Positions 38,609-63,475 of a DNA stretch of 64,000 bases are shown here, piece after piece. Position numbers and translations under genes: made by a program. This DNA comes from Desulfurococcaceae archaeon (GTDB lineage: Archaea > Thermoproteota > Thermoprotei_A > Sulfolobales > Desulfurococcaceae), in NCBI GenBank assembly GCA_038816475.1, contig JAWBAI010000005.1, positions 17,566 to 81,565 on the forward strand. The letters are read 5' to 3'. The notes under the pieces were generated by a model that saw only the letters and a program-made list of their open reading frames with translations, did no database searches and was not told where the DNA came from. Each line of letters starts with the position of its first letter. The first letter of the stretch is position 1.

Positions 38609-38616
38609 GTCACCTA

Positions 38617-38648
38617 TTTTTTTCTTGAAGACTTAACCTTCATTTTTT
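38617..38648 (+). terminator. Putative U-rich archaeal terminator/attenuator between the SBP and ATPase genes
   Basis: T7 run at 38617-23 and T6 run at 38643-48 just after the stop codon. Confidence 0.45.
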
Positions 38649-38670
38649 GCTTAAATCATCGTGAAAGGGG

Positions 38671-45435: not shown

Positions 45436-46401
45436 TCACCCGGGAATTATTCTTGTTCCAGCTTCTCCTCTGAGAGCTTCAGCTGCTTGCTTAAGATGAG
45501 CTATTACTGCTAGTTTACCACCGTTCTGTATGAACCTGACGCCGGCTAGCACCTTTGGACCCATGCTTCCAGGTTTGAAGTGACCTTCCTTGTAGTACTT
45601 TAGTGCTTCGCTCACCGTTAGAACTTTGACTGGTTTAGCGTTGGGTGTTCCGTAGTCTAAGTACACGTAGTCAACGTCTGTTAGTATCATGAGAACATCT
45701 GCTCCAAGCGAACTAGCCATTCTCTCTGCTCCAAGGTCCTTGTCTATTACAGCTTCCACTCCGCTGAGCCTCCCGTTTTCCTCAACAACTGGTATTCCTC
45801 CTCCACCATCCGCTATTACAATGAAGCCTTTTTCAACCAGTGTTCTAATAGCCTCGATCTCCACTTGGATAAGCGGGTCAGGTGATGGTACGACTCTTCT
45901 GAATCCACCGCGAGGATCAGGCTTAAAGATCCACTTGTATTCTGCTGCTAGCTTATCAGCCTCCTCCTTCTCGTACCATGGACCAATGTACTTTGAGGGG
46001 TCTTTGAAGTCGGGGTCATCTCTTCTAACGAGAGTTTGTGTAACAACGGTGACTACGCCCTTAACCACGCTGGGGATTAGTTCTTTCTCTTTGAGCTTGT
46101 TGTAAAGTGCTTGCTGAAGTATGTAGCCAAGCCAACCCTGAGTCATAGCACCAGCTATGTCCAGGCTCATTGGTGGAATGTTCTTGTGCTTAAGTCCAAG
46201 CACCATTAGTTCAGCGAGTATACCAACCTGTGGTCCATTACCGTGGGTTACAACAACTCTGTAGCCTTCCTCAACGAGGCTTACAACAGCTTCTGCTGCT
46301 CTGTACGCGTTTCGCCAGTAGTCCTCAACAGTACCCTTCTCGCCTTTCGACTGAAAAGCGTTTCCACCAAAGGCTATAACAACTAATCCTTTATTCTTCA
46401 A
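45436..46401 (-). CDS. arcC: Carbamate kinase
   Basis: AFGGNA, THGNGPQVG, AMTQG, RRVVPSP, GGGGIPV, EAVIDKD, GSMGPKV. Confidence 0.97.
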   Translation of the reverse strand: MKNKGLVVIAFGGNAFQSKGEKGTVEDYWRNAYRAAEAVVSLVEEGYRVVVTHGNGPQVGILAELMVLGLKHKNIPPMSLDIAGAMTQGWLGYILQQALYNKLKEKELIPSVVKGVVTVVTQTLVRRDDPDFKDPSKYIGPWYEKEEADKLAAEYKWIFKPDPRGGFRRVVPSPDPLIQVEIEAIRTLVEKGFIVIADGGGGIPVVEENGRLSGVEAVIDKDLGAERMASSLGADVLMILTDVDYVYLDYGTPNAKPVKVLTVSEALKYYKEGHFKPGSMGPKVLAGVRFIQNGGKLAVIAHLKQAAEALRGEAGTRIIPG

Positions 46402-46478: not shown

Positions 46479-47747
46479 CTAGCGATCTTTGCCCAAATGG
46501 GTGTGCAGGGCTTTCTCAAGATCTCTGAGGGTTGGTGATATGGTTGGAGCATCTCCTGCGATGTTCTTCAGGACCTCATGGTCCTTTAAGCCGTGCCCGG
46601 TTACTAGTACAACAACTGTTTCATCTCTATCGACTCTACCCTCGTTAACAGCCTTGATGAGTCCTGCTAGTCCAGCAGCACCACTAGGCTCTGCTAGTAT
46701 CCCCTCGAGGCTAGCCAAGAGCTTCATGGCTTCAACTATTTCACTATCGGATACTACAACTCCGTAGCCGTTGGTATCGTAGAGTGCTCGAAGCCCTGCA
46801 TCACCGTCCCACGGGTACGTGTCCTCGAGACCCGTAGCAATTGTTTGAGGAGGCTTCTCCCAGGGTCTAATATTCAGAGGGTCTTGCTTTTCGAACCAAG
46901 CTCTAACCAGTGGGTGATTACCCTCTGGTTGAACAGCGACCAGTCTTGGATACTCGTTCACAAGACCTATTTCGTTGAGGTCTCTAAACCCCTTGTAAAC
47001 GCCAGTTAGTAAACTACCAGCACCCACTGGAACGAAAACCTGACTTGGAACACTGTAGTTCAACTGCTCAGCGATCTCCATGGATATGGTCTTAGCACCT
47101 TCAACCTGGTAGGGGTTGAAGGGGCCGAAGCTAGGGCTCATGTAGAAGCCGAACTTCTCGTATGCTAGTTGCATGAGCTTTACTGTTGGGTCCTCGGCTG
47201 TTGTCCACTCTACTTTAAACACTTTTGCTCCGTAAACTAGTAGCTGTGCTATTTTACCGTAGGCTGCGAAGTGAGGTACAAAAGCGTAAACGGTTAACCC
47301 TGCTCTTGCACCGTAGGCTGCTAGCGAAGCAGCTGCATTACCACTACTAGCTGTAACAGCGTGCTTGTACCCGAAGTACTTAGCCATTGATACTGAAACA
47401 CTCATGCATCTATCCTTGAAACTACCGGTAGGATTACGCGTTTCATCCTTCAAGTAAAGGTTTCTCAAGCCAAGTTTTTCACCCAGCTTCTCAGCTTTGA
47501 CCAGTGGTGTTCCACCCTCGTAGAGTGTAACAGCGGCTTCGGGATTTGGTAGTGGTAGTAGCTCTCGGTATCTCCACATGTAGAAGAGTCTTTGCCTAAG
47601 AGTATCCTTGGACAAGTGCTCTTTTACAGCTTCATAGTCGTAGTGTACGTCTAGTCTACCGAGGTCTCTGTTAGCGCAGATCAAGGGCTTCATGTCTAGC
47701 GTGTATACTCTGCCACACCTACTACACACTAGTTTCTCAACAAACAA
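46479..47747 (-). CDS. Threonine-synthase-like PLP enzyme (fold type II)
   Basis: N-terminal CxxC..C, EGGTPL, NPTGSFKDR, ASSGNA, PVGAG, EPSGA, TGHGLK. Confidence 0.85.
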   Translation of the reverse strand: MFVEKLVCSRCGRVYTLDMKPLICANRDLGRLDVHYDYEAVKEHLSKDTLRQRLFYMWRYRELLPLPNPEAAVTLYEGGTPLVKAEKLGEKLGLRNLYLKDETRNPTGSFKDRCMSVSVSMAKYFGYKHAVTASSGNAAASLAAYGARAGLTVYAFVPHFAAYGKIAQLLVYGAKVFKVEWTTAEDPTVKLMQLAYEKFGFYMSPSFGPFNPYQVEGAKTISMEIAEQLNYSVPSQVFVPVGAGSLLTGVYKGFRDLNEIGLVNEYPRLVAVQPEGNHPLVRAWFEKQDPLNIRPWEKPPQTIATGLEDTYPWDGDAGLRALYDTNGYGVVVSDSEIVEAMKLLASLEGILAEPSGAAGLAGLIKAVNEGRVDRDETVVVLVTGHGLKDHEVLKNIAGDAPTISPTLRDLEKALHTHLGKDR

Positions 47748-47815: not shown

Positions 47816-50215
47816 CTAGTGTTTTATCCCGTGCTTCTTTATTATATAGTAGACTCTGTCCGGTGTTGCAGGTATAGTGTTTAGATCTCTGCTTGCTTTT
47901 TCAGACTTTAAGGCATGGGCTATTGCATTGACTATGGATGGTGCTATTGCAACTATGGATGGTTCTCCTAGACCCTTAGCACCGAAGGGTCCTCTTGAGT
48001 ACCCTGCTTCAACGAAGTCCACGTTTATGGTTTCGGGAACATCGGGAAGAGTTGGAATATGGTACTTGGAGAAGTTGGTGTTGTAAACGCTTCCATTGGG
48101 TGCGTGAACTATTTCCTCCATTAGTGCATAACCCATTCCCTGTATGTAGCCTCCTATTGCGTGGAACTCTGCTCCAAGTCTGTTTACAACTCTCCCGATG
48201 TCGTACACGGTTGTTGCACTGAGAACTCTCACTAAGCCTGTTTCAACGTCAACTTCAACCTCGCTGATCACTGCACCGAAGGTGTATGTGAAGTACGGTT
48301 GTCCTGTTCCAGTTTCATCGTGCCACTCGGCTGGTGGAGCACGGAAGAAACCGTACTCCTGCAGTGGAACACCTCTCCAGAATGCTTGCTCAACGAGCTC
48401 TCTCCACGTAATGGACCTCCTGGGTTCGTCTCTGCAGTATACTCGTGGAGCCTCGATCACGACCTCGCTTGGTGAACAACCAAGCATTTCTGAAGCCAAC
48501 TTGTTTAGTCTTTCTCTCAGCTTGTAGGCGGCTACCAGAACGGCGTTACCAGCCATAACCGTGACTCTGGAGGCAACGGTTGGTCCACCGTCTGGAACAG
48601 ATGATGTGTCTATGGATTCAACCTTAAAGTACCATGGTGGAACACCCAGGACCTCAGATGCTATATTCAGAAGAGACTGTATAGAGCCTTGACCCATGTC
48701 AGTTAAACCAGACCTAAGTACAATGCTTCCATCCCTCTGGATGATGATAGAGGCTGATGAGTAGTCTGCTCCCTCAGCGCCGATGCTGTTACCGTGCCAC
48801 ACGATGGCAATACCAATACCCCTCCTGAACCTGCCTTTGCTCTCCATGTAAAGTTTTCTCTTCTCATGCCAGTTACTAAGCTCTACAGCTCTTTTGATAG
48901 CATCTTCGAGGCCTACGCCGTGGTCTAAGAACTGTCCGTGGACTGTTCTATCCCCGTTTCTCAGAATGTTCTTTAGTCTTATTTCAACGGGATCTAATCC
49001 CAGCTCCTCCGCGATGAGATCCATTTGTCTCTCAACAGCGAAGTGAACTTGTGGGTTTCCAAAGCCTCTGAACGCTCCAGCTGGTACTCTGTTGGTGTAA
49101 ACAACAAGGGTGTCTATTTTTGCGTTTTTAACCCTGTAAGGACCCGTGCTGTGAACAGTTGCTCTCCAGCCCACGAAGGGACCCAGGCTTGCGTAAGCAC
49201 CAGTGTCGAGCACTATTTTAGCTTCAACAGCTAGTATTGTTCCATCTCTGCTTGCAGCGTGCTTGTACCATGCGATCATCGGATGCCGCTTGGTGTGTCC
49301 TATTATGGATTCCTCTCGCGTGTGTAATACAACGGCTGGTCTACCGGTTGCTAGTGCTGCAAGAGCAGCTTTCGCAGCTATCTCGTTTCCAACATCTTCT
49401 GCACCGCCAAACCCTCCTCCAAGAGCTGGTGCGATCACCCTTACCATGCTGAATGGTTGACCGAGAACACTTGAAACAGCGCGACGAGTATCAAAGGGGC
49501 ACTGTGTTTTTGCGTATATCGTAACTCCACCATCTGGCTCTGGTATGGCTATGGCTGCTTCTGGCTCCAAGTATGCGTGCTCCTGCATGGGAGTACTGTA
49601 AACGTTCTCCACGATAACCGTGGCTTCCTCGAAGGCTTTCTTTACGTCTCCAGTTCTGATCCTGTACCGGGATAGTACATCTGAGCCTCTTTCATCGTGT
49701 ATCAAAACATGTTCCTTCTCTCTGAGTGTTTCAAAGTCCACTATTTCCAGCGGATCAAGGTAAACCGGCAACGGCTCGTAATCAACGTGCACTCTCTCAG
49801 CTGCTTCCACAGCGTTTTCAAGAGACTCTGCAACAACGAGTGCTACTGTGTCACCTATGTACCTAACCTTTCTATCTGCTAACAATGGTTGATCGGGTAA
49901 AACGTAACCAACATCGTTGATACCCGGTATATCCCTAGCCGTTAGAACCCTCAGAACACCAGGGTACTTTACAGCTTCAGAAACATCAATGCTCTTGATC
50001 CTAGCATGAGCGTACCTTGATCTAACGCTGTAGACGAACACTGGGTTCTTGATCAGGTTCAGTAGATCCGCCGTGAATATAGGTTTACCCGTAACTTTGC
50101 TAATAGCATCCCATCTAGCAATACGCTTACCTACGTACTTGAACTCTTGCGTTGACTTGCTCCTCGTCTCGGTGAACACTCTCTCAACTATCTCCAGGTA
50201 ATCCGGTCTACTCAT
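47816..50215 (-). CDS. Xanthine dehydrogenase family molybdopterin-binding subunit
   Basis: QEHAYLEP, GGGFGG, AFRGFGNPQ, MGQG, GPTVASR, KGLGEP. Confidence 0.95.
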   Translation of the reverse strand: MSRPDYLEIVERVFTETRSKSTQEFKYVGKRIARWDAISKVTGKPIFTADLLNLIKNPVFVYSVRSRYAHARIKSIDVSEAVKYPGVLRVLTARDIPGINDVGYVLPDQPLLADRKVRYIGDTVALVVAESLENAVEAAERVHVDYEPLPVYLDPLEIVDFETLREKEHVLIHDERGSDVLSRYRIRTGDVKKAFEEATVIVENVYSTPMQEHAYLEPEAAIAIPEPDGGVTIYAKTQCPFDTRRAVSSVLGQPFSMVRVIAPALGGGFGGAEDVGNEIAAKAALAALATGRPAVVLHTREESIIGHTKRHPMIAWYKHAASRDGTILAVEAKIVLDTGAYASLGPFVGWRATVHSTGPYRVKNAKIDTLVVYTNRVPAGAFRGFGNPQVHFAVERQMDLIAEELGLDPVEIRLKNILRNGDRTVHGQFLDHGVGLEDAIKRAVELSNWHEKRKLYMESKGRFRRGIGIAIVWHGNSIGAEGADYSSASIIIQRDGSIVLRSGLTDMGQGSIQSLLNIASEVLGVPPWYFKVESIDTSSVPDGGPTVASRVTVMAGNAVLVAAYKLRERLNKLASEMLGCSPSEVVIEAPRVYCRDEPRRSITWRELVEQAFWRGVPLQEYGFFRAPPAEWHDETGTGQPYFTYTFGAVISEVEVDVETGLVRVLSATTVYDIGRVVNRLGAEFHAIGGYIQGMGYALMEEIVHAPNGSVYNTNFSKYHIPTLPDVPETINVDFVEAGYSRGPFGAKGLGEPSIVAIAPSIVNAIAHALKSEKASRDLNTIPATPDRVYYIIKKHGIKH

Positions 50216-50763
50216 TCTCTCACCTCCAGTGGTTTCATGTAGAGCTTTTCTCTAACCTCCTTCTCGTTGAAGAACACTCTTCCCTCACGCACGTACTTGG
50301 AGGCTAGTTGAGCTGCTCTCACGTAGTAATGGTAGCTACCGCATCTGCATAGAACACTACTAAGCCATTCTTTTATTTCATCCACGGAGGGATCGGGGTT
50401 TCTATCGATCAAAGCCTTCATCACCATGAGTACACCCGGTACGCAGAAACCACACTGAATTCCACCAGTCTCTAGTAGAGCTACTTGAACAGCGTGAAGC
50501 ATACCGCTAGGTGCAATACCCTCGAGGGTTACAACCTCAGCTCCATCAAGCGTAGCTGTGAGAAGTAGGCAGGAGTTTCTCGGTTCTCCATTCACTAGAA
50601 CAATGCAGGTTCCACACTCTCCTCTACCACAACCTTCCTTGACACTCGTAAAGCCAAGTCTATACCTTAGCGTGTTTACCAAACGCTCGTTTGCAGGAAC
50701 AACAACGGTGTACTCTCTTCCGTTAACAACAAGACGCACGTTGTGCGTCTTCAAGCAGAACAC
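50212..50763 (-). CDS. Xanthine dehydrogenase family 2x[2Fe-2S] subunit
   Basis: GCGRGECGTC, QCGFC, LCRCGSY. Confidence 0.95.
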   Translation of the reverse strand: MFCLKTHNVRLVVNGREYTVVVPANERLVNTLRYRLGFTSVKEGCGRGECGTCIVLVNGEPRNSCLLLTATLDGAEVVTLEGIAPSGMLHAVQVALLETGGIQCGFCVPGVLMVMKALIDRNPDPSVDEIKEWLSSVLCRCGSYHYYVRAAQLASKYVREGRVFFNEKEVREKLYMKPLEVRE

Positions 50764-51650
50764 CCCCTTTCAACTCTCTCCTTCACTACACGTAGTCCAT
50801 CCTTCAACGCAACCTTGGACATTTCTAACCTGTACTCGGCTGTTGTCCACCAGTCGGTAATCCTCTTCATTACTCTTGGAAGAACATCCTCGGAGGCTTT
50901 CTCGACGAGCTCCTCTGTGTAGACTTTGCCTTTAAGAAAGTCCTCGATCTCTCTAATTCTCGCGGGAATGCGCTTATCCTTAACCATATCATACGCTACT
51001 CTAACATCTCTCATGACTCCATCCACAAAGGTTGCGTAAACAGCGCAGGTTACTACTCCAGCGATGAGCAGGCTTCTTCTGTCGAATTTCACGAAAGCAC
51101 TGCTTGTTTTATCCGGGGGGTAGTCAAAGGTGATCTCCGTGATGAGCTCGTGTGGTTTTAGAGCTGTTACCCTGTTATCTAGTAGGAACTCTTCAAGGGA
51201 TAGTTCTCTTTCACCATCAACGCTTGCAAGTTTAACACGGGCATCGTGCACGAGGAGCAGTGGAATGTAATCACTGTACTGAGTCGCGGTTGCGATGTTA
51301 CCTCCGATCGTAGCGGAGAACCTTATAGCTAGTGTTCCAAACTTTCTCCAGACATCCACGAAACCAGCGAACCTGACGTCTCTGTGAAGTATGCTCTTGC
51401 TCAAGTCGTAAACTCTCGTCAAGGCACCAATTCTCACTCTTCCATTCTCTACTTTCACGTAGGATAGCTCTCTTCTGAGAGGTGAAAGATCCAGTAGGAA
51501 CCTTGGTGTAGGTATCTTCCTGTCTCTGATCAGAAGTAGAAGCTCTGTTCCACCAGCTAGAGGCTTAACATCGGGGGAGTTCTTTGCAAGAAACTCAAGA
51601 GCTTCTGCTAAGGATCTAGGGCGGTATATATCAAAGCTATGAATGAACAA
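50751..51650 (-). CDS. Xanthine dehydrogenase family FAD-binding subunit
   Basis: AGGTEL, IGALT, ATIGGNI, AEYR. Confidence 0.95.
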   Translation of the reverse strand: MFIHSFDIYRPRSLAEALEFLAKNSPDVKPLAGGTELLLLIRDRKIPTPRFLLDLSPLRRELSYVKVENGRVRIGALTRVYDLSKSILHRDVRFAGFVDVWRKFGTLAIRFSATIGGNIATATQYSDYIPLLLVHDARVKLASVDGERELSLEEFLLDNRVTALKPHELITEITFDYPPDKTSSAFVKFDRRSLLIAGVVTCAVYATFVDGVMRDVRVAYDMVKDKRIPARIREIEDFLKGKVYTEELVEKASEDVLPRVMKRITDWWTTAEYRLEMSKVALKDGLRVVKERVERGCSA

Positions 51651-51790: not shown

Positions 51791-52804
51791 ATGAGCTTGA
51801 AGGTGTGCAACAGCCTAATTGATTGCATAGGGAAAACACCCGTGATAAGAATCACCAGAGTTCTTCCACCTCGCATCAAAGCCGAGATCTGGGGTAAAAT
51901 GGAGTTCCTCAACCCCTCCGGTAGCGTGAAAGATAGAATCGCAGTGTACATGATTAAAAGAGCTCTTGAGAAGGGTGAGCTGAAACCAGGTATGACTCTC
52001 GTAGTACCCACGACAGGTAACACGGGTATAGCTTTCGCATCGGTTGGTGCATCACTTGGTTTCAAAGTGCTAATAGTTATCCCTGAGGAAATGAGCGCTG
52101 AGAGATTCATGCTCATGAAGCTTCTCGGTGCAGACTTCTACTTTACACCCGGTGGTGAAGTAGACGCGGGCGGAGCTCTAGAGGTGGCAAAGAGACTAGT
52201 TGCCGAGAACCCTGATAAGTACTACTTGTTTGACCAGTGGAGTGACGAAGCTAACGTTGAAGCGCACTACGAGACCACTGGGAAAGAGATAATTGAACAA
52301 CTGGGTTGCCCTAAAGCCTTTGTAGCTAACGTTGGAACCGGTGGAACCCTTGTAGGTGTTGCCAAGAGGCTCAAAGAGGAGTGCAGAGACGTGATCGTCG
52401 TAGGAGCTGAGCCTGCTGAGTGCGCAGTAGCTACGTCCTGGTTTAAGAAAGGTGTAGTTGAAGCATGTGGTAGACACGAAGTGGAAGGTGTTGGCGATGG
52501 CTTTGTACCCGACATTATTGCCAGGTACAAGCATCTTCTCGACGACTTCGTTACAGTCTCAAGCGAAGAAGCTATACTGATGACCAGGGAGTTGGCCAGG
52601 AAAGAGGGGTTACCAGTTGGAATAAGTAGCGGTGCAAACGTTTCAGCAGCGATCAAAGTGGCCGAGCAGTACGGACTTAAAGAAGATGACAAAGTTGTCA
52701 CTATTCTACCGGATTACGCAGCAAGGTACTTCAGTACAAGGCTCTTCAGAAAGAAAAAAGAAGTAGCGAGCAGACGGATAATACTAGAGGAGCTAGACCT
52801 ATAA
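51791..52804 (+). CDS. Cysteine synthase family PLP enzyme
   Basis: IGKTP, NPSGSVKDR, PTTGNTG, GTGGT, EGVG, GISSGA, PD..RYFS. Confidence 0.9.
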   Translation: MSLKVCNSLIDCIGKTPVIRITRVLPPRIKAEIWGKMEFLNPSGSVKDRIAVYMIKRALEKGELKPGMTLVVPTTGNTGIAFASVGASLGFKVLIVIPEEMSAERFMLMKLLGADFYFTPGGEVDAGGALEVAKRLVAENPDKYYLFDQWSDEANVEAHYETTGKEIIEQLGCPKAFVANVGTGGTLVGVAKRLKEECRDVIVVGAEPAECAVATSWFKKGVVEACGRHEVEGVGDGFVPDIIARYKHLLDDFVTVSSEEAILMTRELARKEGLPVGISSGANVSAAIKVAEQYGLKEDDKVVTILPDYAARYFSTRLFRKKKEVASRRIILEELDL

Positions 52805-52805
52805 T

Positions 52806-54641
52806 CTACTTTTTATACACCTCCTCAACGAGTGGAATAAGTCTACCGCTTTGAACATCTACAAGACCTCTATCAGTGATCCTAACCTCGGGTATTACCG
52901 GTAGTGAAACCAAGCTTAGTGTCATGAAGAACGACTCAAAGTGAACATTGTAGTGGCTTCTCATGTACTCGAGCATCCTTGTGTACTTCTCGTATACTAC
53001 CTCGGGTTCCTCAATGCTCATTAAGCCCGCTAACCTCAGTTCCAACTCTGCTACGATCTTACCGTTGTCCACGATGACTATACCACCCTGTATTCTTTCA
53101 ACCTCTCTCACAGCAGTATCCATGTCTCTCGGGTTCCAGCCCGCTACTACGAGGTTGTGAGTGTCGTGTGCTATGGTTTGAGCTATTGCACCAGCCTTAA
53201 AGCTTAACCCCTTGATGAACCCTGTTGAGAATCTACCACTACCTGTGTGTCTGTCGGCTACAACAACGTACATGATGTCTTTTTCGTAGTTCGTCTTCAA
53301 GATGCCGTTTTCAACCTCGAGTTCCTCGACAACCTTCTTGGTTAACGTGGAGCCTGGTTTAACCTCGATAACGTTTACTCTGGCATACCCGTGTTCAACG
53401 GACTCCTTTAATCTAGGAGTATATGAGATGACCTCTGGTAGTTTTCCAAGCTTCACGGTTTGAAGTACGCGCGGAGGGTACTCCGGCTTCTTGAACTCTT
53501 TCTGCAGTGTGTTCTTGTAGTATATGAGTTCTCCATTTGCTATCACTGTTTCTGGTTGTATTCTCTCGATTCTGCTCGTTAATACTATATCCGCTATGCG
53601 ACCAGGCGCAATTAAACCGATGTGATCTTCTAGGTGAAGCCTAATTGCCGGGTACAGGGTAGCGTACTTAACCGCTTTCACAGGGTCTACTCCGAGCTCA
53701 ATAGCACGGTTGATGATCCTATCCATGTGTCCTTTCGTGAAAAGGTCATAAACGTTCAGATCATCACTGACGAAGACGCATAGATCGCAAGCATTTTCCC
53801 TCACGATGGAAACTAGAGCTTCAAGATCTCTCCAAGCACTACCCTCTCTGATATAAATCCACATTCCTCTCCTCAGTTTTTCAACAGCTTCATCGATCGC
53901 TGTTGTTTCGTGATCGCTAATTATACCCGCTGATATGTACGCGTCAAGATGTGGACCCTTTAACTGCGGTGCATGACCATCTATGATCAAGCCCTTGTTC
54001 TTAGCCGCCTCTACTTTCCTTAAAACCTCTTCGGATGCGTGTACAACGCTGATGAAATCCATTACCTCGCCTAATCCACAAACGTTCTCACGTTCCACGA
54101 GCTTTGATACAGTTGAGGAGTCGATTACATGTGGTGCTGTTTCAAGCCCTAGGTACGGATCAGTTGCTGGAACGCAGCTCGGGACTTCCACCAGGAACTT
54201 TAGTGGAAGATCCTTCGTAAACGATATGAAGATCTCTACGCCTTCGGCTCCAAGAACGTTCGCTATCTCGTGTGGATCCGCTACAACAGTTGTTGTTCCA
54301 TGCTTAAGTGCTATTTTTGCGAAGCCTACTGGGTTTAGCAATGAGGATTCAACGTGAATGTGGAGATCTATGAAGCCCGGTAATGCGTACTTACCTTCGC
54401 AGTCAACTACTCGTGTTCTACTGGAGATGTACCTGGAGATGTCCTTTATTCTACCAATCCTGGCGATCCTCTTGCCCTTAATAACAACACTATAGTTCTC
54501 CAGTACCTCCTCGGTGGTTGGAACAACTATGTTTACGTTTGTTAAAACCATGTCAGCAGGAATTGCACCACGAGAGGCAAGAATGAGTTCTCTTCGTTCA
54601 CTCAAACTGTATTTTTCTATTAGAGTATTCAACGACTTCAC
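52806..54641 (-). CDS. ade: Adenine deaminase
   Basis: HIHVESS, DPHEIANV, LGEVMD, DGHAP, SDHE, REGS, AHDTHN, LSLVSLPVIPE. Confidence 0.96.
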   Translation of the reverse strand: MKSLNTLIEKYSLSERRELILASRGAIPADMVLTNVNIVVPTTEEVLENYSVVIKGKRIARIGRIKDISRYISSRTRVVDCEGKYALPGFIDLHIHVESSLLNPVGFAKIALKHGTTTVVADPHEIANVLGAEGVEIFISFTKDLPLKFLVEVPSCVPATDPYLGLETAPHVIDSSTVSKLVERENVCGLGEVMDFISVVHASEEVLRKVEAAKNKGLIIDGHAPQLKGPHLDAYISAGIISDHETTAIDEAVEKLRRGMWIYIREGSAWRDLEALVSIVRENACDLCVFVSDDLNVYDLFTKGHMDRIINRAIELGVDPVKAVKYATLYPAIRLHLEDHIGLIAPGRIADIVLTSRIERIQPETVIANGELIYYKNTLQKEFKKPEYPPRVLQTVKLGKLPEVISYTPRLKESVEHGYARVNVIEVKPGSTLTKKVVEELEVENGILKTNYEKDIMYVVVADRHTGSGRFSTGFIKGLSFKAGAIAQTIAHDTHNLVVAGWNPRDMDTAVREVERIQGGIVIVDNGKIVAELELRLAGLMSIEEPEVVYEKYTRMLEYMRSHYNVHFESFFMTLSLVSLPVIPEVRITDRGLVDVQSGRLIPLVEEVYKK

Positions 54642-54691: not shown

Positions 54692-56113
54692 TTGAAACCC
54701 GGTGATCTATCCGTGGCTGATATATACGTTAGGGGTGGATGGGTGCTAACGCTGGATCCTCGGAGAAGGATCATCAGGAACGGGGCAGTAGCCATCAGTG
54801 ATGGTGTCATCGTGGACGTTGGTAAGAAGGATGAGCTTGATGCAAGGTACAGGTACTACTCGGACATTGTAATAAACACAGAGAAGGATATTGTAATGCC
54901 GGGATTAATCAACACGCACGTTCACCTTGTTCAAGGCTTACTTAGGCACTGTGCAGACTACTTACCACTAATAAGCTGGCTTAAAAACAGAGTATGGCCA
55001 CTACAGGGGAACTACAAGCCCGAGGAAGCTCTCGCCTCAGCAAAGCTAGTTCTACTAGAGATGATAAAGACGGGGGCTACAACGTTCCTTGAAACAGGCC
55101 TTGTGGGTAGGTACGGTCCTGACAACATAATAGAGTTCGTCTACGAGGCTGGACTGCGAGGAGTCTTCGCTAGGCACGTAATGGACTTAAGGGGGTATGC
55201 TCTCGAGGAGGAGGCTATTCACAAGGGTTTAATCGAGTCAGGTGATGCTAGCTTCAACGATACACTTAGACTCTACTACAAGTACCACGGGAAAGGCAAC
55301 AGAGTGTGGATCTGGTTCGGGCCGAGAACACCCGGTGCTGTGAGCGTAGAGCTGTACAGGAGAATCTCCGAGAAAGCAAGAGAGCTCAACACAGGTATAA
55401 CAATGCATCTTGCCGAGGTAAAAGAAGACGTAGAGTACACCGTGCGATTGTTCGGTAAGAAACCAGTAGAGTTTGCTAACTGGGTTGGATTAACCGGTAG
55501 AAACGTTGTTCTCGTCCATGTTGTCTGGGTTGATGACAACGAGATCAAGCTACTCGCGGAGACGAAGACTAATGTAAGCCACAACCCATCTAGCAACATG
55601 AAGCTTGGCAGTGGTGCAGCAAGAGTATCAGACATGATCAGGAGCGGTGTCAACGTTGCGCTGGGAACAGATGGTGGTCCAAGCAACAACACCTACGATC
55701 TCATGAGGGAGATGAAGCATGCCGCGCTCTTGCAGTACGTAACGAAGTTGAACCCGAGAGCTGTCAGAGCCGAGGAGGTTGTTGAAATGGCAACAATAAA
55801 CGGTGCTCGTGCTCTCATGATAGACCACTTGGTTGGTAGCATAGAGGTTGGTAAGAGAGCTGACATCATAGTTCTCGACTACTGGGTTCCACACCTGCAT
55901 CCACTTGTAAACCCGGTTTCACACCTGGTCTTTGCAGCCTCAGGCTCAGACGTTAAGCACGTGATAGTTGATGGTAAGTTGATAATGTTTAACAGGAGAG
56001 TTCTAACGCTAAACGAAGAGGAGATCATAGAGGAAGCTGAGAAGAGAGCCTTTGAGCTCTACAGTAGAACAGGGATCTGCTTGGAGCCTGATACGGTTTG
56101 GCCTATCACCTAG
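54692..56113 (+). CDS. Amidohydrolase, TRZ/ATZ (MTA/SAH-, guanine-, 8-oxoguanine-deaminase-like) family
   Basis: NTHVH.Q, MHLAE, LVHVV, HNPSSNMKL, GTDG. Confidence 0.9.
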   Translation: MKPGDLSVADIYVRGGWVLTLDPRRRIIRNGAVAISDGVIVDVGKKDELDARYRYYSDIVINTEKDIVMPGLINTHVHLVQGLLRHCADYLPLISWLKNRVWPLQGNYKPEEALASAKLVLLEMIKTGATTFLETGLVGRYGPDNIIEFVYEAGLRGVFARHVMDLRGYALEEEAIHKGLIESGDASFNDTLRLYYKYHGKGNRVWIWFGPRTPGAVSVELYRRISEKARELNTGITMHLAEVKEDVEYTVRLFGKKPVEFANWVGLTGRNVVLVHVVWVDDNEIKLLAETKTNVSHNPSSNMKLGSGAARVSDMIRSGVNVALGTDGGPSNNTYDLMREMKHAALLQYVTKLNPRAVRAEEVVEMATINGARALMIDHLVGSIEVGKRADIIVLDYWVPHLHPLVNPVSHLVFAASGSDVKHVIVDGKLIMFNRRVLTLNEEEIIEEAEKRAFELYSRTGICLEPDTVWPIT

Positions 56114-56454: not shown

Positions 56455-57519
56455 ATGCCCGCTTTGAGAAACCTTGTTCGTGAACTATCAGGTAAAGATC
56501 TGATATCTACACTCGAGTGGAGTGACGAAGAAATCGACATTGCTCTCAAGCTATCAGCTGAGTTCAAGAACATAGCACACTACTACGGTACAGAGGCTAT
56601 TCCCAAGGTTCTAGCAGGAAAAGTATTCTACATGCTGTTCTTCGCTCCATCAACGAGAACTAGAGCGGCTTTCGAAACAGGAATGTATCTACTGGGTGGA
56701 CACGCGGCATACATAGATGCAACAACAACGAGGTTAGCTGTTGGGAAAGAGGAGAAGGTTGGAGAGGATATTAGAGACGTAGCTGCAATGTACGATGTCT
56801 ATGGGCATGGACTGGGGATAAGGATCCTCGATAAGGCTATAGACTACTTGTACGGAGTTGGTAACAAGTACATCAGGGAAATGGCTAGGGTTGCAAAGAT
56901 CCCCGTTATAAACATGGCAGATGACATGTTTCATCCAACCCAGGGATTGGCAGACATATTCACATTCATCGAGAAATTCAAGAACCCGCGTGGCAAGAAG
57001 TATGTTATTATGTGGGCTTACAGCCCGGAGATCAGGGGCTGGTGCAGTGTTCAGGAGGACATGGTCCTGTTTCCGAGATTCGGCGTGGATGTGGTAATAG
57101 CTAGACCACCGGGTTTTGACCTTGACCCCAAGCTCGTTGAGAAGGCTAGAGAAATCGCCAAGGAGCAGGGCGCTGTTTTCGAAGTTACAGACAACCTGAG
57201 GGAAGCACTAGCTGGAGCTCACGCTGTTTTCCCAAGAAACTGGGCTTCACCAACTCTGGTTCAGCTCGGCTACAGCAAGTTCAAGGACGAGGAGCTCAAG
57301 ATATACGAGAAGTACAAGAACTGGAAGGTTACAAGAGAACTAATGGACCTCATGGACAAGCATGGTGTACTAATGCATGTTCTACCCATATTCAGAGGTT
57401 ACGAAGCAGACGAAGATGTAATAGACGACCCAAAGAGGTCGATCATATATCAGCAAGCGGAGAACGGTCTTTGGACTAAAATGGCTGTTCTAGCCCTTAC
57501 AATGTACGGTGTTAAGTAG
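56455..57519 (+). CDS. Carbamoyltransferase, YgeW/knotted transcarbamylase-like (paralog 1)
   Basis: STRT, HPTQ, MWAYSP, HVLP, QAENG. Confidence 0.88.
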   Translation: MPALRNLVRELSGKDLISTLEWSDEEIDIALKLSAEFKNIAHYYGTEAIPKVLAGKVFYMLFFAPSTRTRAAFETGMYLLGGHAAYIDATTTRLAVGKEEKVGEDIRDVAAMYDVYGHGLGIRILDKAIDYLYGVGNKYIREMARVAKIPVINMADDMFHPTQGLADIFTFIEKFKNPRGKKYVIMWAYSPEIRGWCSVQEDMVLFPRFGVDVVIARPPGFDLDPKLVEKAREIAKEQGAVFEVTDNLREALAGAHAVFPRNWASPTLVQLGYSKFKDEELKIYEKYKNWKVTRELMDLMDKHGVLMHVLPIFRGYEADEDVIDDPKRSIIYQQAENGLWTKMAVLALTMYGVK

Positions 57520-57648: not shown

Positions 57649-58857
57649 CTACGTGAACTTGATGGCTCTTGTTGGACATACTGTTGTGCAGAGACCGCAA
57701 CCGTAGCACTTGGTAAGGTCTACAACGGCTACTCTTCTACCCTGTTTCCCTGTTTCAAAGTGTATAGCGTTGTAGTTGCAAACCTGTTGGCAGAAGCCGC
57801 AGCCTATGCATCTCTTCTCGTCTACTCTGGGGGGTAGAGCCCACGTTCTGAGAGGTTCTAGTTTAAGGTACTTTAGGCTCATACCCTTGATGTCCAGGAT
57901 GCTACTGTATCCGTGACGTTTAAGCCAATCCTCTAGTTCTCTGAGTATGCGCTTGAAAACACCTGGTCCCTCTATGAGCGCAGCTGTGCATATTTGTACT
58001 GCTGACGCGCCAACCATGAAGTACTCAACTACGTCTACACCTCTGAAGATTCCTCCAACACCGATAACCGGTAGTTTCGTGTTCTTAGCGATCTCGGCTA
58101 CGATTGCTAACGCTAAGGGCTTTAGCGCTGGGCCACTCATCCATCCGTAACCACCGGGTCCTCCGACTATGGGTAATCCTGTTTCAACGTCTATGCTTAA
58201 AGCTGGACCAATGGTGTTTGTTGCAACTAGTCCATCTACTCCCACGGATTCAAGCTCTTTAACCAGCTCGGGTATGTTCGGAGTGAACGGACTCAGCTTG
58301 GCGAAGATTGGAATGGAAACGGATTCCCTGAGAGCCTTAGCAGCTTCAACTATGGGTTTGTAGTCTCTACCAATGTAGTGTGTGGAAAACTCAATCGCAT
58401 CTACACCAGCTTTCTCCACCTTGGGGCCCAGTAACGCGAGCTCTTCTGGTTTGTAACCTATGCTTGCGAACAGTGCAACACCGTGTTCTCTGCAGTACTT
58501 GACCATAGCAGGGTACTCGCGCTCGAGGTAGTGCTCAGCTGGAATATCACTCCACAACTCGGCGTTCAGAACAGCGTAAATGAACCTTGAGTTACCAGCA
58601 TCCACGGAAACAACCTGAACTTCACCTGGTTTCACTGTTCTGAGAACGTGGAACCTTCCAAGCCCTCGGTCTACAACACCCATCGTTGGTCTGGGAACAA
58701 TAGCTGGAACCACGCTAATAGTCTTAGCAACAACTCCACCCACATCGTTATCCACCAGTAGCTTCACGGATTCGAAGTCGCGAGAAATAGGACAAGCAGC
58801 GTTCATCAACGGATTCTTCAACCTGAAACCTGCGATTTCGACTGATAGATCAACCAC
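57649..58857 (-). CDS. Dihydropyrimidine/dihydroorotate dehydrogenase-like FMN protein with C-terminal 2x[4Fe-4S] domain (PreA-like)
   Basis: NPLMNAA, AKT, KLSP, TNT, SGPALKP, GASAVQICT; CIGCGFCQQVC and CYGCGLCTTVCP. Confidence 0.88.
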   Translation of the reverse strand: MVDLSVEIAGFRLKNPLMNAACPISRDFESVKLLVDNDVGGVVAKTISVVPAIVPRPTMGVVDRGLGRFHVLRTVKPGEVQVVSVDAGNSRFIYAVLNAELWSDIPAEHYLEREYPAMVKYCREHGVALFASIGYKPEELALLGPKVEKAGVDAIEFSTHYIGRDYKPIVEAAKALRESVSIPIFAKLSPFTPNIPELVKELESVGVDGLVATNTIGPALSIDVETGLPIVGGPGGYGWMSGPALKPLALAIVAEIAKNTKLPVIGVGGIFRGVDVVEYFMVGASAVQICTAALIEGPGVFKRILRELEDWLKRHGYSSILDIKGMSLKYLKLEPLRTWALPPRVDEKRCIGCGFCQQVCNYNAIHFETGKQGRRVAVVDLTKCYGCGLCTTVCPTRAIKFT

Positions 58858-58915: not shown

Positions 58916-60301
58916 TTATGCTTTCAAATAGTCGATCTGGTATCTACCACTGCTTAGCAGCTTATCCCAGAGCCTCTCAACAACCCTGTGGACGTACTCT
59001 ACAGCCTTCTCCTCGTCAACCCCCAGAACTCTTCTATCCCTCATGACCACTCTTCCGTTGACGACAACGGTTTTCACATCCTTACCACTAACGGTGTTAA
59101 CGAGGTGAGCGTAAACAGTTTTCTCGTTCACCGGTGTCGGAGGATGCTCGGGTTTCAACACAACGATATCGGCTTTTTTACCCGGCTCTAAGGAGCCTAG
59201 CTCGTTCTCCACGTGGAACATTTTCGCAACGTTGACTGTTGCCATTTCTACAACCTGCATGAGTGTTATAACCCTTGGATCCCTGTTCCAGACCTTGTGT
59301 ATCAGGTACGCAGCTCTCATGTTCTCGAAGTGGTCAAAAACATAGCCATCGTTTCCTAGTCCAACGTTGATACCCATTCTCAACATCTCTGGAACTCTTG
59401 CAACACCAACAGCGTTCAACATGTTGCTCATGGGGTTGTGAGCCACGTGAGATCCTGTTCTCCTGATCAACTCTAGTTCGTCCATGGTTGTGTTCACCGT
59501 GTGTACAAGGATCACGTCATCTCCTAGGAAGTTCAGCTTGTACATTCTCTCAACGGGTCTTAAACCGTATCTTTCAATGTTGTGGTATACGTCCACTAAT
59601 CCCTCCTCGGTGTGAATAGCAAGCAAAGCCTTGTACTTGTTTGCTAGCTCACGAGCCTTGATGAAGAGGTCGTCAGATACGGTAAAGCTAGCGTGGAGGT
59701 ATATTGCTCCCTTCACGAGCTTAGAGGGATCAAAGTTGTTCTTGAGAATAAACCTCTCGTTTTCTTTTAAACCTCTAACTCCCTCCTCTAAGCTGCGCCT
59801 CTGGGTTGCCTCAAAGGATAGGTATCCTCTTATACCAACCTCGTTGACGGCTTTCTCAATGTAGTCCAAAACACCCTCTATGGAGTTTGGAGCACTTATG
59901 TTATCGAAGAAGAAGGTGACTCCCGATTTAACGAAGAGGAGACTACCCAGTAGTGCCGATGCATACGCATCTTCGTGCGTTAGTAGTACATCAAGAGCCC
60001 ACCATATTCTCTGAAGATTCTGCTGAAAATCGGTGGGTGCTTCGATCTTCGAAAACCAGGGACTCCCAGTGATTAAAAGTCCGTAGAAGTGCGTGTGAGC
60101 ACACATAAATCCCGGTGTTACAATGCTTTTTCTAGCATCAATGTACTCTTCTGCTATGTACTTGTCCTTACCATCACCCACACCAACATCAACTATTCTC
60201 TCACCTGAAACAGCAACGTAGCCGTTTCCGATGACCCTTCTCTCGCTGTTCATTGTTACAACAAGTCCATTTGAAACAAGGATGTCGACTCTTTCTCTCA
60301 A
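58916..60301 (-). CDS. SsnA-like amidohydrolase
   Basis: HTHFY...DFQQNLQRIWWALD (SsnA-type), HASFTVSD, HTEEG, HNPMSNMLNAVG, GNDG. Confidence 0.85.
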   Translation of the reverse strand: MRERVDILVSNGLVVTMNSERRVIGNGYVAVSGERIVDVGVGDGKDKYIAEEYIDARKSIVTPGFMCAHTHFYGLLITGSPWFSKIEAPTDFQQNLQRIWWALDVLLTHEDAYASALLGSLLFVKSGVTFFFDNISAPNSIEGVLDYIEKAVNEVGIRGYLSFEATQRRSLEEGVRGLKENERFILKNNFDPSKLVKGAIYLHASFTVSDDLFIKARELANKYKALLAIHTEEGLVDVYHNIERYGLRPVERMYKLNFLGDDVILVHTVNTTMDELELIRRTGSHVAHNPMSNMLNAVGVARVPEMLRMGINVGLGNDGYVFDHFENMRAAYLIHKVWNRDPRVITLMQVVEMATVNVAKMFHVENELGSLEPGKKADIVVLKPEHPPTPVNEKTVYAHLVNTVSGKDVKTVVVNGRVVMRDRRVLGVDEEKAVEYVHRVVERLWDKLLSSGRYQIDYLKA

Positions 60302-60422: not shown

Positions 60423-61496
60423 TTAATCTCCCATTACCATTGCCATCACAGCTTTCTGAACATGTAGTCTGTTCTCTGCTTCCTCGAAGTAGAGGCTCTT
60501 CTCGTACTTGTCCAGCACTTCGTCTGTAACTTCTTGACCACGGTCAGCTGGACCACAGTGCATGTAGTATGGTTTCCCGGCTTTCTCCAGCCTTTCGACT
60601 GTTACTATCCAGTCCTTGAACTTGTCCTGGTAAGCTTTGGCTCCCTCTTTATCCACGAAGGTGTTGTAAGGTGGGAAGAACCCCTTTGGGCTCCAGGCTT
60701 TCGGGTATACTAGGAAAGCTCCTTCGAACGCTTCATCCATGTTGTGTAGTATTTTGAACTCGCTACCCCAGTACTCGGAGTACTTCTTTATCCTCTGCAC
60801 TACTTCGTCCATTAGCTCGAAGCCGGGTGGATGAGCTAGGTAAACGTCTGCTCCCAGTAATGCAAACATTGAGGCAACATCCTGTGGTACAGCAAGTGGC
60901 TTTAATCCTCCACTGTAAGCGTAGCTAACAACAATTTTCTTACCTCTGAGGTCCTTGGGCCAGCCAAGTACCTCCATAGCGGCCATTGCGTCAGCAAGTG
61001 CTTGGAAGGGATGCCATATGTCATCCTCCATGTTTAAAACCGGAACCGATGACCACTTGGCGAACTCTTCGATAACCCTGTGACCTCGACCAATTATCCA
61101 CTTGGCGGCATCTCCGTATATTCTTATAGCTATACCGTTTCCATATCTGCTTAGAACTCTGGCAACATCGCTTATAGCCTCTGTTTGATACGGGATCATG
61201 TCCTCGGGTAACGTGGGTGTGTAAACCTGGTCTGGGCTTATGTATATGGCTTGTCCACCAAGCTGGTACATACCTGTTTGAAAACTGTTCCTTGTTCTAA
61301 GGCTCTTATTGTAGAATATGAGGTACAGTGTTTTACCATCAAGCCAGTTTACCTTCCTAATACCTCGGTGGTACATCTCCTTGAGTTCTCTAGCAGCCTG
61401 CAGAACCTTTAGGATCGTATCAAGATCGTATTCGTAGTTGGAAATCCAGTGCTTACCGTGGAGATAACCCACAAACCAGGGTTTATCTCTGGGCAT
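60423..61496 (-). CDS. Carbamoyltransferase, YgeW/knotted transcarbamylase-like (paralog 2)
   Basis: SLRT, HPFQ, SYAYSGGLKPLAVPQ, YPKAWSP, HCGPADRG, EAENR. Confidence 0.88.
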   Translation of the reverse strand: MPRDKPWFVGYLHGKHWISNYEYDLDTILKVLQAARELKEMYHRGIRKVNWLDGKTLYLIFYNKSLRTRNSFQTGMYQLGGQAIYISPDQVYTPTLPEDMIPYQTEAISDVARVLSRYGNGIAIRIYGDAAKWIIGRGHRVIEEFAKWSSVPVLNMEDDIWHPFQALADAMAAMEVLGWPKDLRGKKIVVSYAYSGGLKPLAVPQDVASMFALLGADVYLAHPPGFELMDEVVQRIKKYSEYWGSEFKILHNMDEAFEGAFLVYPKAWSPKGFFPPYNTFVDKEGAKAYQDKFKDWIVTVERLEKAGKPYYMHCGPADRGQEVTDEVLDKYEKSLYFEEAENRLHVQKAVMAMVMGD

Positions 61497-62146: not shown

Positions 62147-63475
62147 TTACTTGCGAAGCAGAATTGAACCAATGTATACTCCTGAGCCGGGTTTACCCAC
62201 GAGTTCACCCTTCTCAATAACAAGGTTTCCACGAACGATCGCGTACCTAGGATGACCGTAGACCTTCAAACCCTCCCACGGTGTCCAATCCACCTTGTGG
62301 TGGTGTGTTCTGTGCGATATTGTTCTCGGGTTTCTAACATCCAGGACAACCAGGTCTGCTTGACTACCGGGTGCTATTGCACCCAACGTAGGGTACAAGC
62401 CGAGTAAGCGTGCGGGATTCTCCGAGAAGACCTTGATGAAGGTTTCAAAGCTTATTCTACGCTCCATAACACCGTAGGTATATAGAAACGGGCCCATCAC
62501 CTCGAGGTTTGGTATACCACTCCAAGCACTCCACACATCCTTTTCCTTCATCTCCCTTGGGCATGGTGCGTTGTCACTAGCGTAGATATCGACAACTCCT
62601 CTCGCGATTCCTCTCCACAGGGCTTCTCTATCCTCGCTTGTTTTAAGCGTTGGAGCCATCTTCAGGTACGTTCCGTACTTAACACTATCCTCCCTTGTGA
62701 AGTAGAGGTAGTGCGGGCATGTTTCAGCTGTGATCCCAGTACTCAGCCTCTTCAGGTACTCAACAGCTTGAACACCCTCTTTGCTCGAGAGATGTGCTAT
62801 GTGAACCCTTGCTCCTACATCAGCAGCTGCTAATCCTACTCTCATAATAGCCGATGCTTCAGCGTAACCAGTTCTGCTCATGTGGTAAGCTAGTATGCTG
62901 TTGGAGCTTCTATGCTTCTCCTCGTAGTAGTCTACGAGGCCATCGTCTTCGGCGTGAACGATGAGAACAGCGTTGTTGTCCCTTACCTTCTCCATGATCC
63001 GGGGTACAGCTGATTCGTCCACTTTGAAGGGTCTGCAGGTGAACATCTTGAAGGTTTTAACACCGTGCTTTGCGAGAAGGTCAATGGACGCAATGTTGTC
63101 TCCTCTGAGGAATCCACCGGTTACACCGTAGTTAATGTAGGATTTCCTAGAGGCTTCGTTTATCTTGTGGTAGAGTGCACCGAGGTTGTCAACGTGGACT
63201 CTCAGAGGCATATCCACGATGGTTGTTATGCAACCGTAGAGAGCAGCAAGACTACCTGATTCCCAATCCTCGTTAACCGCGTACTCTGGGTCGTAGACAT
63301 GAGCGTGAACATCTATTCCACCCGGTACAACGGGGAGACCTTCTCCGTCAACCACGACATCCGCAGGCTTCTCTAGCTTAGATACGGACTTGATGTACCC
63401 GTCCTCAACCAGGATAGATCCCTCCACGAGCTCTCCATTGATTGGTATCCTAACGTTTCTTAGGAGAAGCGTCAT
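62147..63475 (-). CDS. Cyclic amidohydrolase (hydantoinase/dihydropyrimidinase/allantoinase-like, HyuA-like)
   Basis: DVHAH, DMP, TFKMF (carbamylated Lys), HAED, HIAHLSS, ETCPHYL, SDNAP, WTPWEG. Confidence 0.9.
   Translation of the reverse strand: MTLLLRNVRIPINGELVEGSILVEDGYIKSVSKLEKPADVVVDGEGLPVVPGGIDVHAHVYDPEYAVNEDWESGSLAALYGCITTIVDMPLRVHVDNLGALYHKINEASRKSYINYGVTGGFLRGDNIASIDLLAKHGVKTFKMFTCRPFKVDESAVPRIMEKVRDNNAVLIVHAEDDGLVDYYEEKHRSSNSILAYHMSRTGYAEASAIMRVGLAAADVGARVHIAHLSSKEGVQAVEYLKRLSTGITAETCPHYLYFTREDSVKYGTYLKMAPTLKTSEDREALWRGIARGVVDIYASDNAPCPREMKEKDVWSAWSGIPNLEVMGPFLYTYGVMERRISFETFIKVFSENPARLLGLYPTLGAIAPGSQADLVVLDVRNPRTISHRTHHHKVDWTPWEGLKVYGHPRYAIVRGNLVIEKGELVGKPGSGVYIGSILLRK

Follow-up and report, generated by a model that had tools for sequence, protein, structure and literature searches.

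A UacX-like flavoprotein with a cysteine-free active-site loop as a candidate ferredoxin-linked 2,8-dioxopurine reductase of Desulfurococcaceae

The gene at 57649..58857 on the minus strand of a 64,000-nucleotide stretch of a Desulfurococcaceae archaeon genome (GenBank assembly GCA_038816475.1, contig JAWBAI010000005.1; the whole stretch is referred to as the window) encodes a 402-amino-acid flavoprotein, here called the target. As judged from its sequence, the target is an archaeal, insertion-bearing member of the UacX / DHase X1 group. By analogy with known enzymes, it is best read as a ferredoxin-linked replacement for the reductase YgfK, and it probably acts as a reductase of 2,8-dioxopurine, or of an oxopurine very close to it, that draws on a low-potential electron donor. 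We infer its substrate, its electron donor and the role of its shortened active-site loop. The features of the target, and the true pair of dihydroorotate dehydrogenase (DHOD) genes in the same window, are listed below; DPD stands for dihydropyrimidine dehydrogenase.

57649..58857, minus strand: target gene, UacX-like / DHase-X1-like flavoprotein, 402 amino acids (open reading frame and translation; Pfam DHO_dh and Fer4)
57652..57831, minus strand: C-terminal 2x[4Fe-4S] domain with two CxxCxxCxxxC motifs (residues 343-402; Pfam Fer4 families)
58375..58392, minus strand: short active-site loop E156-F-S158-T-H160-Y161, which replaces the canonical E-L-N-x-S-C-P
58546..58566, minus strand: substrate-loop motif N98-A-E100-L-W102-S-D, which resembles N-I-E-L-I-S of DPD
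58573..58680, minus strand: insertion at residues ~60-95, a low-confidence predicted beta-hairpin (gap in the PyrD alignment)
26975..28625: true PyrD-PyrK pair, with PyrD on the minus strand

The most distinctive feature of the target is its active-site loop. The true PyrD of the window (26975..28015, minus strand, with PyrK beside it) carries the loop IELNLSCPHVRGHGLEIG, and its D-A-I-E-L-N-L-S-C-P-H-V-R-G-H-G-L-E-I-G was matched in the MAFFT alignment by D-A-I-E156-F-S158-T-H160-Y161-I-G in the target, leaving a 9-residue gap. Relative to pig DPD the loop was ~12 residues shorter, and both N668 and C671 were missing. Residues were counted in 81 sequences, namely the window protein and 80 fetched relatives with identities down to 40%. 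E156 and S158 were present in all of them, H160 in 79/81 and Y161 in 77/81 (the other four having His), while position 159 was Thr in 71, Leu in six, Cys in three and Ser in one. A preliminary description of the sequence had noted IEFSTHY, without the Asn and the catalytic Cys, in place of ELNxSCP (ELNLSCPH in the window PyrD), and both the alignment and these counts bear this out. On this comparison, the replacement is a conserved signature of the family and not the product of chance or decay. In three members from Negativicutes (L063, L070 and L080) the loop is E-L-S-C-H-Y, so that Cys takes the place of the usual Thr159; the S-C of the canonical loop may have persisted here or may have been regained.

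Residues that bind the flavin mononucleotide (FMN) or the substrate in both DPD and DHOD were retained, namely K45 (80/81), N98 (80/81), K187 (81/81) and N214 (81/81). N98-x-E100 of the target resembled N609-I-E611 of DPD, and N214-T resembled N736-T737. In the substrate loop, E100 and W102 were found in 81/81 sequences. W102 is family-specific, and W102, E100 and W239 are invariant across the family and replaced by other residues in PyrD.

In DPD the proton is supplied by Cys671 on a mobile loop, and in class-2 DHODs the catalytic base is Ser. In profile alignments, S158 of the target stood opposite N668 of wild-type DPD and opposite position 671 of the DPD C671S mutant, whereas H160 stood opposite H673 in both. 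Because S158 aligns with 671 in one of the two, a serine at the canonical position is compatible with the sequence. Thr159 is not a universal proton donor, since six of the 81 sequences carry Leu there. The "novel active-site chemistry" put forward earlier is thus unproven: the Cys and the Asn are gone, but Ser158 is invariant, two residues after the conserved Glu.

The open reading frame (ORF) starts with a GTG codon and its frame is intact, and in the alignment the relatives start at the same point as its N-terminus, MVDLSVEIAG. An FMN-binding TIM barrel of the DHOD/DPD type makes up residues ~1-330 (Pfam DHO_dh), and the C-terminal Fe-S domain aligns with DPD residues ~940-998. The presence of this domain, also described earlier, was confirmed by the Pfam Fer4 matches and by its eight cluster cysteines (350, 353, 356, 360, 384, 387, 390 and 394), invariant in 21/21 and 28/28 aligned sequences. 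Pig DPD (domains IV-V) was the top fold match, with E ~1e-28, followed by Lactococcus DHOD B, and E. coli PreA was the top sequence model. Unlike DPD and PreA, however, the target has neither the N-terminal half nor a PreT partner. The PreA model NF006183, its best NCBIfam match, scored 189.4 bits, below the cut-off of 335, and the class 1B PyrD model TIGR01037 gave 161 bits against a cut-off of 270. An AlphaFold2 model built from 21 relatives reached a mean pLDDT (predicted local distance difference test) of 80.6, with low confidence only at residues ~56-100 and 217-234.

The insertion after the AKT motif, another point of the preliminary description, comprised ~31 residues in excess of the window PyrD in the MAFFT alignment, beginning ~15 residues past A-K45-T. 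Its pLDDT was 48-62, with strands predicted at 69-76 and 79-85. It was missing from Hadarchaeota, Thorarchaeota and most bacterial members, which are proteins of ~362 amino acids, and on this alignment evidence the insertion in the target is lineage-specific.

A search of 5.8 billion proteins returned at least 120 full-length relatives with 50-99% identity, and the named sources among those listed matches were Desulfurococcaceae, other Thermoprotei and Bathyarchaeia. Their annotations went no further than "4Fe-4S binding protein", "dihydroorotate dehydrogenase" or "PreA". Scanning of species-representative genomes yielded 80 loci, 61 archaeal and 19 bacterial. The archaeal loci came from Desulfurococcales, Bathyarchaeia, Hadarchaeota, Thor- and Hermodarchaeota and others, and the bacterial ones from Bacillota (including Tepidibacter, Clostridium and Negativicutes), Chloroflexota, Acidobacteriota, Synergistota, Fusobacteriota and Coprothermobacterota. 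A phylogenetic tree, built by FastTree alone, contained 103 rows: 80 of the family (the window protein and 79 relatives, the truncated L014 being excluded), 12 canonical S-C-P proteins, the window PyrD and 10 other short-loop proteins. The family formed one clade with a Shimodaira-Hasegawa-like support of 100, apart from the canonical Cys-loop proteins, the window PyrD and the 10 other short-loop proteins. The bacterial members L069 and L074 fell inside this clade, and the window protein was grouped among Desulfurococcaceae.

The target has the same architecture as UacX of Clostridioides difficile (UniProt Q181U4), which is described as a PF01180 FMN domain with Fe-S clusters and no FAD domain, has its gene in one cluster with those of SsnA, HyuA and an XdhD-type enzyme, and is proposed to replace YgfK as the 2,8-dioxopurine reductase, "likely relying on Fdx" (Li et al. 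2025, PMC12507026). In the target, the PF01180 barrel is likewise combined with a C-terminal 2x[4Fe-4S] domain and with no FAD/NAD(P)H domain. The link between the two was provided by a family member of Tepidibacter (locus L069), which shared 40% full-length identity with the target. The genes of this locus encode, in order, a PALP (YgeX-like) enzyme, an M20 peptidase (YgeY-like), an Amidohydro_3 protein (UacY-like), an SsnA-like protein, a xanthine/uracil permease, the UacX-like protein, a HyuA-like protein, a fused 2Fe-2S/molybdenum cofactor (MoCo) XdhD-like protein, YqeC and a MobA-like protein. This composition equals that of the C. difficile uricolytic cluster as given by Li et al. 2025 (PMC12507026), and the 2,8-dioxopurine reading is adopted because this relative sits in the type of cluster that holds the proposed UacX. 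C. difficile itself was not among the 120 listed matches (at least 64% identity) of a search with the Tepidibacter protein, whose sources included Clostridium, Paraclostridium and Tepidibacter. The target differs from UacX in being archaeal and ~40 residues longer through the insertion at residues ~60-95, and its cluster contains two carbamoyltransferases and a carbamate kinase where the UacX cluster contains UacY and YgeY, and has a three-subunit xanthine dehydrogenase (XDH) with an FAD subunit.

The same neighbourhood was noted earlier for DHase X1, an uncharacterised clade of the DHOD/DPD superfamily that splits off ahead of PydA/PreA and has no member in E. coli (Barba et al. 2013, PMC4016543). 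Its neighbours were given as hyuA, ygeW, ygeY, ssnA, xdhABC, ygfU and yqeA, with no function assigned (Barba et al. 2013, PMC4016543). The matching neighbourhood suggests that the target belongs to this clade.

A further line of evidence came from YgfK, the NADPH-dependent 2,8-dioxopurine oxidoreductase of E. coli, which picks 2,8-dioxopurine among three xanthine isomers (Liu et al. 2025). YgfK and the target share the proposed reaction and the partner gene ssnA. However, YgfK (also named DOPOR), which works with NADPH or NADH, has 1032 amino acids, among them a built-in GltD-like module for Fe-S and FAD/NAD(P)H (PF14691 and PF07992), whereas the target corresponds to a reducing half with one ferredoxin domain. 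BLASTP aligned target residues 198-309 with YgfK 303-406 at 32% identity (E 3.9e-5). In hhalign comparisons, the N-terminal domain of YgfK, labelled a "domain of unknown function", matched the archaeal family profile with E 1.7e-5 (probability 79%) and the mixed family profile with E 3.3e-4 (38%), against E 0.095 (0.6%) for the canonical Cys-loop profile. The YgfK profile comprised 22 sequences, all at least 71% identical, with the E. coli K-12 domain taken from L092 16061-17560. YgfK was aligned with the family on three occasions, and each time its invariant T-L-S-T-M-H-G-C-P-P stood opposite E-F-S-T-H-Y-I-G; its invariant N-T-E-W-S-T-E stood opposite L-N-A-E-L-W-S-D in the first alignment only, and opposite the insertion region in the other two. 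These sequence matches suggest that the reducing domain of YgfK and the UacX-like family share unusual loops, which supports a common substrate. The YgfK model TIGR03315 had no match above its cut-off in the target's own genome.

The electrons most likely reach the target from reduced ferredoxin through its two C-terminal clusters, by analogy with PydAc, an FMN and Fe-S enzyme without FAD/NADPH domains for which either reduced ferredoxin or methyl viologen serves as donor (Wang 2020, PMC7332683). The absence of a PreT/GltD-like subunit nearby, claimed in the preliminary description, was upheld: no PreT/GltD-type gene was found among the window ORFs, and no NAD(P)H-binding gene in the cluster. 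Fer4_20 (PF14691, the N-terminal Fe-S domain of PreT/GltD) had no match in the target's own genome (1.15 Mb in 18 contigs, 92% complete), whereas 9/14 control genomes were positive. A GltD-like FAD/NAD(P) protein of 364 amino acids without Fer4_20 is encoded on contig 2 (L084 1465-3062), followed by genes for a 167-amino-acid multi-cluster 4Fe-4S protein and a polytopic membrane protein. This set may be an NAD(P)H-linked redox module. As a hidden NAD(P)H partner of the target, the GltD-like protein is considered less likely, as it lacks Fer4_20 and lies in a different operon.

The genes around the target make up a purine cluster, in which the following features were identified.

58916..60301, minus strand: SsnA-like amidohydrolase (best match NCBIfam SsnA NF005540)
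60423..61496, minus strand: carbamoyltransferase 1, divergent member of the ornithine carbamoyltransferase (OTC) family (Pfam OTCace_N and OTCace; 30% identical to YgeW)
56455..57519, plus strand: carbamoyltransferase 2, divergent OTC-family member, convergent with the target (Pfam; ~30% identical to YgeW)
62147..63475, minus strand: cyclic amidohydrolase (hydantoinase/dihydroorotase/allantoinase-like), candidate HyuA equivalent (Pfam, NCBIfam)
61581-61844, minus strand: 87-amino-acid ORF flanked by the carbamoyltransferase 1 gene and the hydantoinase-like gene, all three in one orientation
56110-56442, minus strand: MoaD/ThiS-like small protein, inside the purine cluster
54692..56113, plus strand: second deaminase-type amidohydrolase, guanine-deaminase/chlorohydrolase-like (25% identical to E. 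coli GuaD, E 2e-34)
52806..54641, minus strand: adenine deaminase (TIGR01178, 513.6 bits, above the cut-off of 472.5)
51791..52804, plus strand: CysK-like pyridoxal phosphate (PLP) enzyme, a conserved cluster member (Pfam, NCBIfam)
47816..51650, minus strand: three-subunit XDH-type Mo hydroxylase (FAD, 2Fe-2S and MoCo subunits)
46479..47747, minus strand: ThrC-like PLP enzyme (Pfam, NCBIfam)
45436..46401, minus strand: carbamate kinase (TIGR00746, 378.8 bits, above the cut-off of 358; 39% identical to YqeA)
42356..44419: secreted SNase-domain protein, 687 amino acids, with a hydrophobic N-terminus
37208..42269: PnrA/Bmp-type nucleoside ABC transporter, four genes
35308..36678: phosphopentomutase-like enzyme (PGM/PMM-family mutase)

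The SsnA-like gene lies 58 bp upstream of the target on the same strand, in agreement with the ssnA linkage proposed earlier, although the order is reversed with respect to E. coli K-12, in which ssnA immediately follows ygfK. Its product scored 365 bits with NF005540 against a cut-off of 444 and was 30% identical to E. coli SsnA over 432 amino acids (E 3e-50). The hydantoinase-like protein was 28% identical to E. coli HyuA over 460 amino acids (E 4e-57). Two of the three OTCace-family genes in the whole genome are those of the cluster, and both of their products fell under every NCBIfam cut-off. The MoCo subunit of the Mo hydroxylase shared 33% identity with XdhA (E 2e-109) and 28% with XdhD, and the MoaD/ThiS-like protein may serve molybdenum-cofactor synthesis for this enzyme. 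Neither a YgeY-type M20 peptidase nor YgeX was present in the window cluster, M20 genes being found only on other contigs; the CysK-like and ThrC-like enzymes are candidates for the diaminopropionate or albizziin step instead of YgeX. No Pfam or NCBIfam match was obtained for the 87-amino-acid ORF, and Rfam gave no match anywhere in the window at gathering thresholds. A nucleic-acid scavenging gene set (35308-44419) adjoins the purine cluster.

To describe how far this arrangement recurs, all ORFs of the 80 loci were compared with the window's own cluster proteins. An SsnA-like gene occurred in 54 of the 80 loci, in 29/38 of those with at least 5 kb on each side, and in 17/19 bacterial loci; it was directly upstream on the same strand in 31/80. 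Among the 80 loci, hydantoinase-like genes were found in 31, ThrC-like genes in 21, carbamoyltransferase 1 in 20, carbamate kinase in 17 and the XDH Mo subunit in 16. The order carbamoyltransferase 2, carbamoyltransferase 1, carbamate kinase, SsnA-like, UacX-like was shared by nine Desulfurococcales loci (L015-L017, L019, L020, L022, L023, L033 and L035), with the ThrC-like gene next in eight of them, and this recurrent order suggests that phosphorolysis accounts for the removal of both ureido groups. A Thermogladius chromosome (L001) also carries the cluster. In many Desulfurococcales loci the UacX-like gene was immediately followed by the ThrC-like gene, and both PLP enzymes were conserved in archaeal clusters and present in some bacterial ones. 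The prediction of a complex from the UacX-like and SsnA-like family alignments gave a score of 0.00 (mark 0.32) and counts neither way.

Two further loci types deserve mention. In Chloroflexota/Anaerolineae (L062, L066, L068, L076 and L079), the UacX-like gene adjoins an SsnA-like gene; Chloroflexota are said in Li et al. 2025 (PMC12507026) to lack YgfK and UacX and to use an F420-type enzyme instead. In a Hadesarchaea locus (L060, 11094-13680), a second, divergent pair adjoins the pair of SsnA-like and UacX-like genes: it encodes an amidohydrolase, which shares 38% identity with the SsnA-like protein, together with a PreA-like protein of the canonical kind, whose loop is IECSFSCPQG. With a Cys-loop PreA-like protein beside a UacX-like one, the two types are therefore not interchangeable there.

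Based on these assignments, a pathway can be proposed. Adenine deaminase and the second deaminase-type amidohydrolase would supply purine bases, and the xanthine-dehydrogenase-type Mo enzyme would set the 2,8-dioxo pattern. The target, an FMN enzyme that would take up electrons through its pair of [4Fe-4S] clusters from a low-potential carrier (reduced ferredoxin being the most likely one), would then reduce C5=C6 in the pyrimidine half of 2,8-dioxopurine (isoxanthine) or of a closely similar oxopurine, akin to the action of DPD on uracil. The SsnA-like enzyme would open the reduced pyrimidine ring to ureidomethyl-hydantoin, the hydantoinase-like enzyme would open the second ring, and the carbamoyltransferases and carbamate kinase would convert the ureido groups into ATP. 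In terms of the products reported by Li et al., ureidomethyl-hydantoin would result from C5=C6 reduction followed by SsnA hydrolysis of the C4-N3 amidine bond. As in uracil reduction by DPD, C6 would accept a hydride from reduced FMN and C5 a proton, and the loop, shortened by 9-12 residues, may make room for the fused imidazolone ring carried at C5. In place of the Cys, the proton might come from S158, H160 or Y161, or a ring nitrogen might be protonated with subsequent tautomerisation.

Several observations weigh against this assignment. No biochemical result was found for any family member, and in Li et al. 2025 (PMC12507026) a UacX-SsnA assay appears in the Methods, whereas the main-text results are for YgfK-SsnA only. 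The equation of the target with UacX goes through the cluster match of the Tepidibacter relative, Q181U4 being compared by description only. The likeness to YgfK is statistically modest (38-79% in hhalign), and the YgfK profile is narrow (at least 71% identity). The SsnA-like protein and both carbamoyltransferases lie under their NCBIfam cut-offs. In addition, an SsnA-like gene was missing from 26/80 loci; the flanks are short in most of these, yet seven (L011, L030, L042, L054, L055, L058 and L065) lacked it despite ~10 kb on both sides. The Thorarchaeota-type amidohydrolase, several kb from the UacX-like gene, is closer to the second amidohydrolase of the window than to the SsnA-like one. 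Finally, the formation of 2,8-dioxopurine is assumed here, because the Mo enzyme of the window is closer to XdhA than to XdhD.

The last point gives some room to another purine-pathway heterocycle as the substrate, either xanthine, 6,8-dioxopurine, urate or ureido-uracil, with ring reduction entered elsewhere. With an XdhABC-type Mo enzyme, production of 2,8-dioxopurine is not evidenced in the window, and the archaeal cluster differs downstream in having two carbamoyltransferases and neither YgeY nor YgeX. Nevertheless, the archaeal members share their substrate-loop motifs with the bacterial members from C. difficile-type clusters, and these motifs resemble those of YgfK, for which selectivity for 2,8-dioxopurine was reported (Liu 2025), so we regard such a substrate as rather unlikely. 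A pyrimidine substrate appears more improbable still. The target would in that case be a ferredoxin-dependent DPD for uracil or thymine, and the hydantoinase-like enzyme and the carbamoyltransferases would complete a reductive pyrimidine pathway. This would suit the closest solved fold (DPD), the best NCBIfam model (PreA), and a cluster holding a dihydropyrimidinase-like gene and ureido-cleaving enzymes, and there is a precedent for a ferredoxin-linked DPD in PydAc of Clostridium chromiireducens, which acts on uracil, has two ferredoxin domains (four clusters) and is encoded in Pyd clusters (PMC7332683). However, the target has one ferredoxin domain where PydAc has two, its PreA score is far from the cut-off (189 against 335 bits), and the Asn and Cys loop of DPD is missing across the whole family. 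Moreover, the family is tied to SsnA and Mo hydroxylases, and in the Hadesarchaea locus the UacX-like gene has a canonical Cys-loop PreA-like gene as a neighbour.

The loss of the catalytic Cys and of one substrate Asn could also mark a DHOD paralogue that has decayed or no longer acts as a catalyst, and that might serve in electron transfer or as a scaffold. This is highly improbable, given that the replacement motif and the FMN residues are conserved in 81 archaeal and bacterial sequences down to 40% identity, and that the intact gene lies in a conserved catabolic cluster. Two simpler identities were rejected: a pseudogene, as the frame is intact and the motif conserved, and a second DHOD, because a true PyrD-PyrK pair is present in the same window. 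The ferredoxin-linked reduction of 2,8-dioxopurine is thus retained as the best reading of the target.

The preliminary description had proposed a ferredoxin-fed purine-ring reductase. Its function and donor are largely supported by the clade, the neighbourhood and the Tepidibacter cluster, but the idea is not new: this function has already been proposed in print for bacteria (Li et al. 2025, PMC12507026), and the neighbourhood was recorded in 2013 as that of DHase X1 (PMC4016543). What is new here are the archaeal members, including those of hyperthermophilic Desulfurococcaceae, the likeness of the YgfK N-terminal domain with its LSTMH loop, and the archaeal cluster with two carbamoyltransferases and a carbamate kinase. 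The word "archaea" is absent from the main texts of Li et al. 2025 and Liu et al. 2025, as are "cysteine" and "proton" from that of Li et al. 2025 (PMC12507026), and literature searches on UacX, SsnA, archaeal purine degradation and isoxanthine reductase returned no paper on an archaeal version.

A broader reading that joins these points is offered tentatively, as a possibility and not as the expected outcome. Desulfurococcaceae, Bathyarchaeia, Hadarchaeota and Asgard archaea might run their own ATP-yielding 2,8-dioxopurine fermentation of purines scavenged from nucleic acids. The two carbamoyltransferases might phosphorolyse both ureido groups of 2,3-diureidopropionate to two carbamoyl phosphates, giving two ATP per purine, with CysK/ThrC-type enzymes replacing YgeX. 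The Cys-independent S-T-H(-Y) site, common to UacX and the reducing domain of YgfK, might then be a signature of 2,8-dioxopurine reductases generally.

The anaerobic 2,8-dioxopurine pathway was not elucidated until 2025, in work confined to gut bacteria. A reductase-SsnA core in hot-spring and subsurface archaea would extend it across domains. Such archaea are commonly described as peptide or sugar fermenters; the target, however, is set among genes for a secreted nuclease, a nucleoside ABC transporter, purine deaminases, a Mo hydroxylase and carbamate kinase, which suggests that they can also gain energy from purines by substrate-level phosphorylation. The S-T-H-Y loop, strengthened as a marker by its echo in YgfK, may serve to separate purine-ring reductases from the dihydropyrimidine and dihydroorotate dehydrogenases with which annotation pipelines now confuse them, and a thermostable member would lend itself well to a first structure determination within this class of enzymes.

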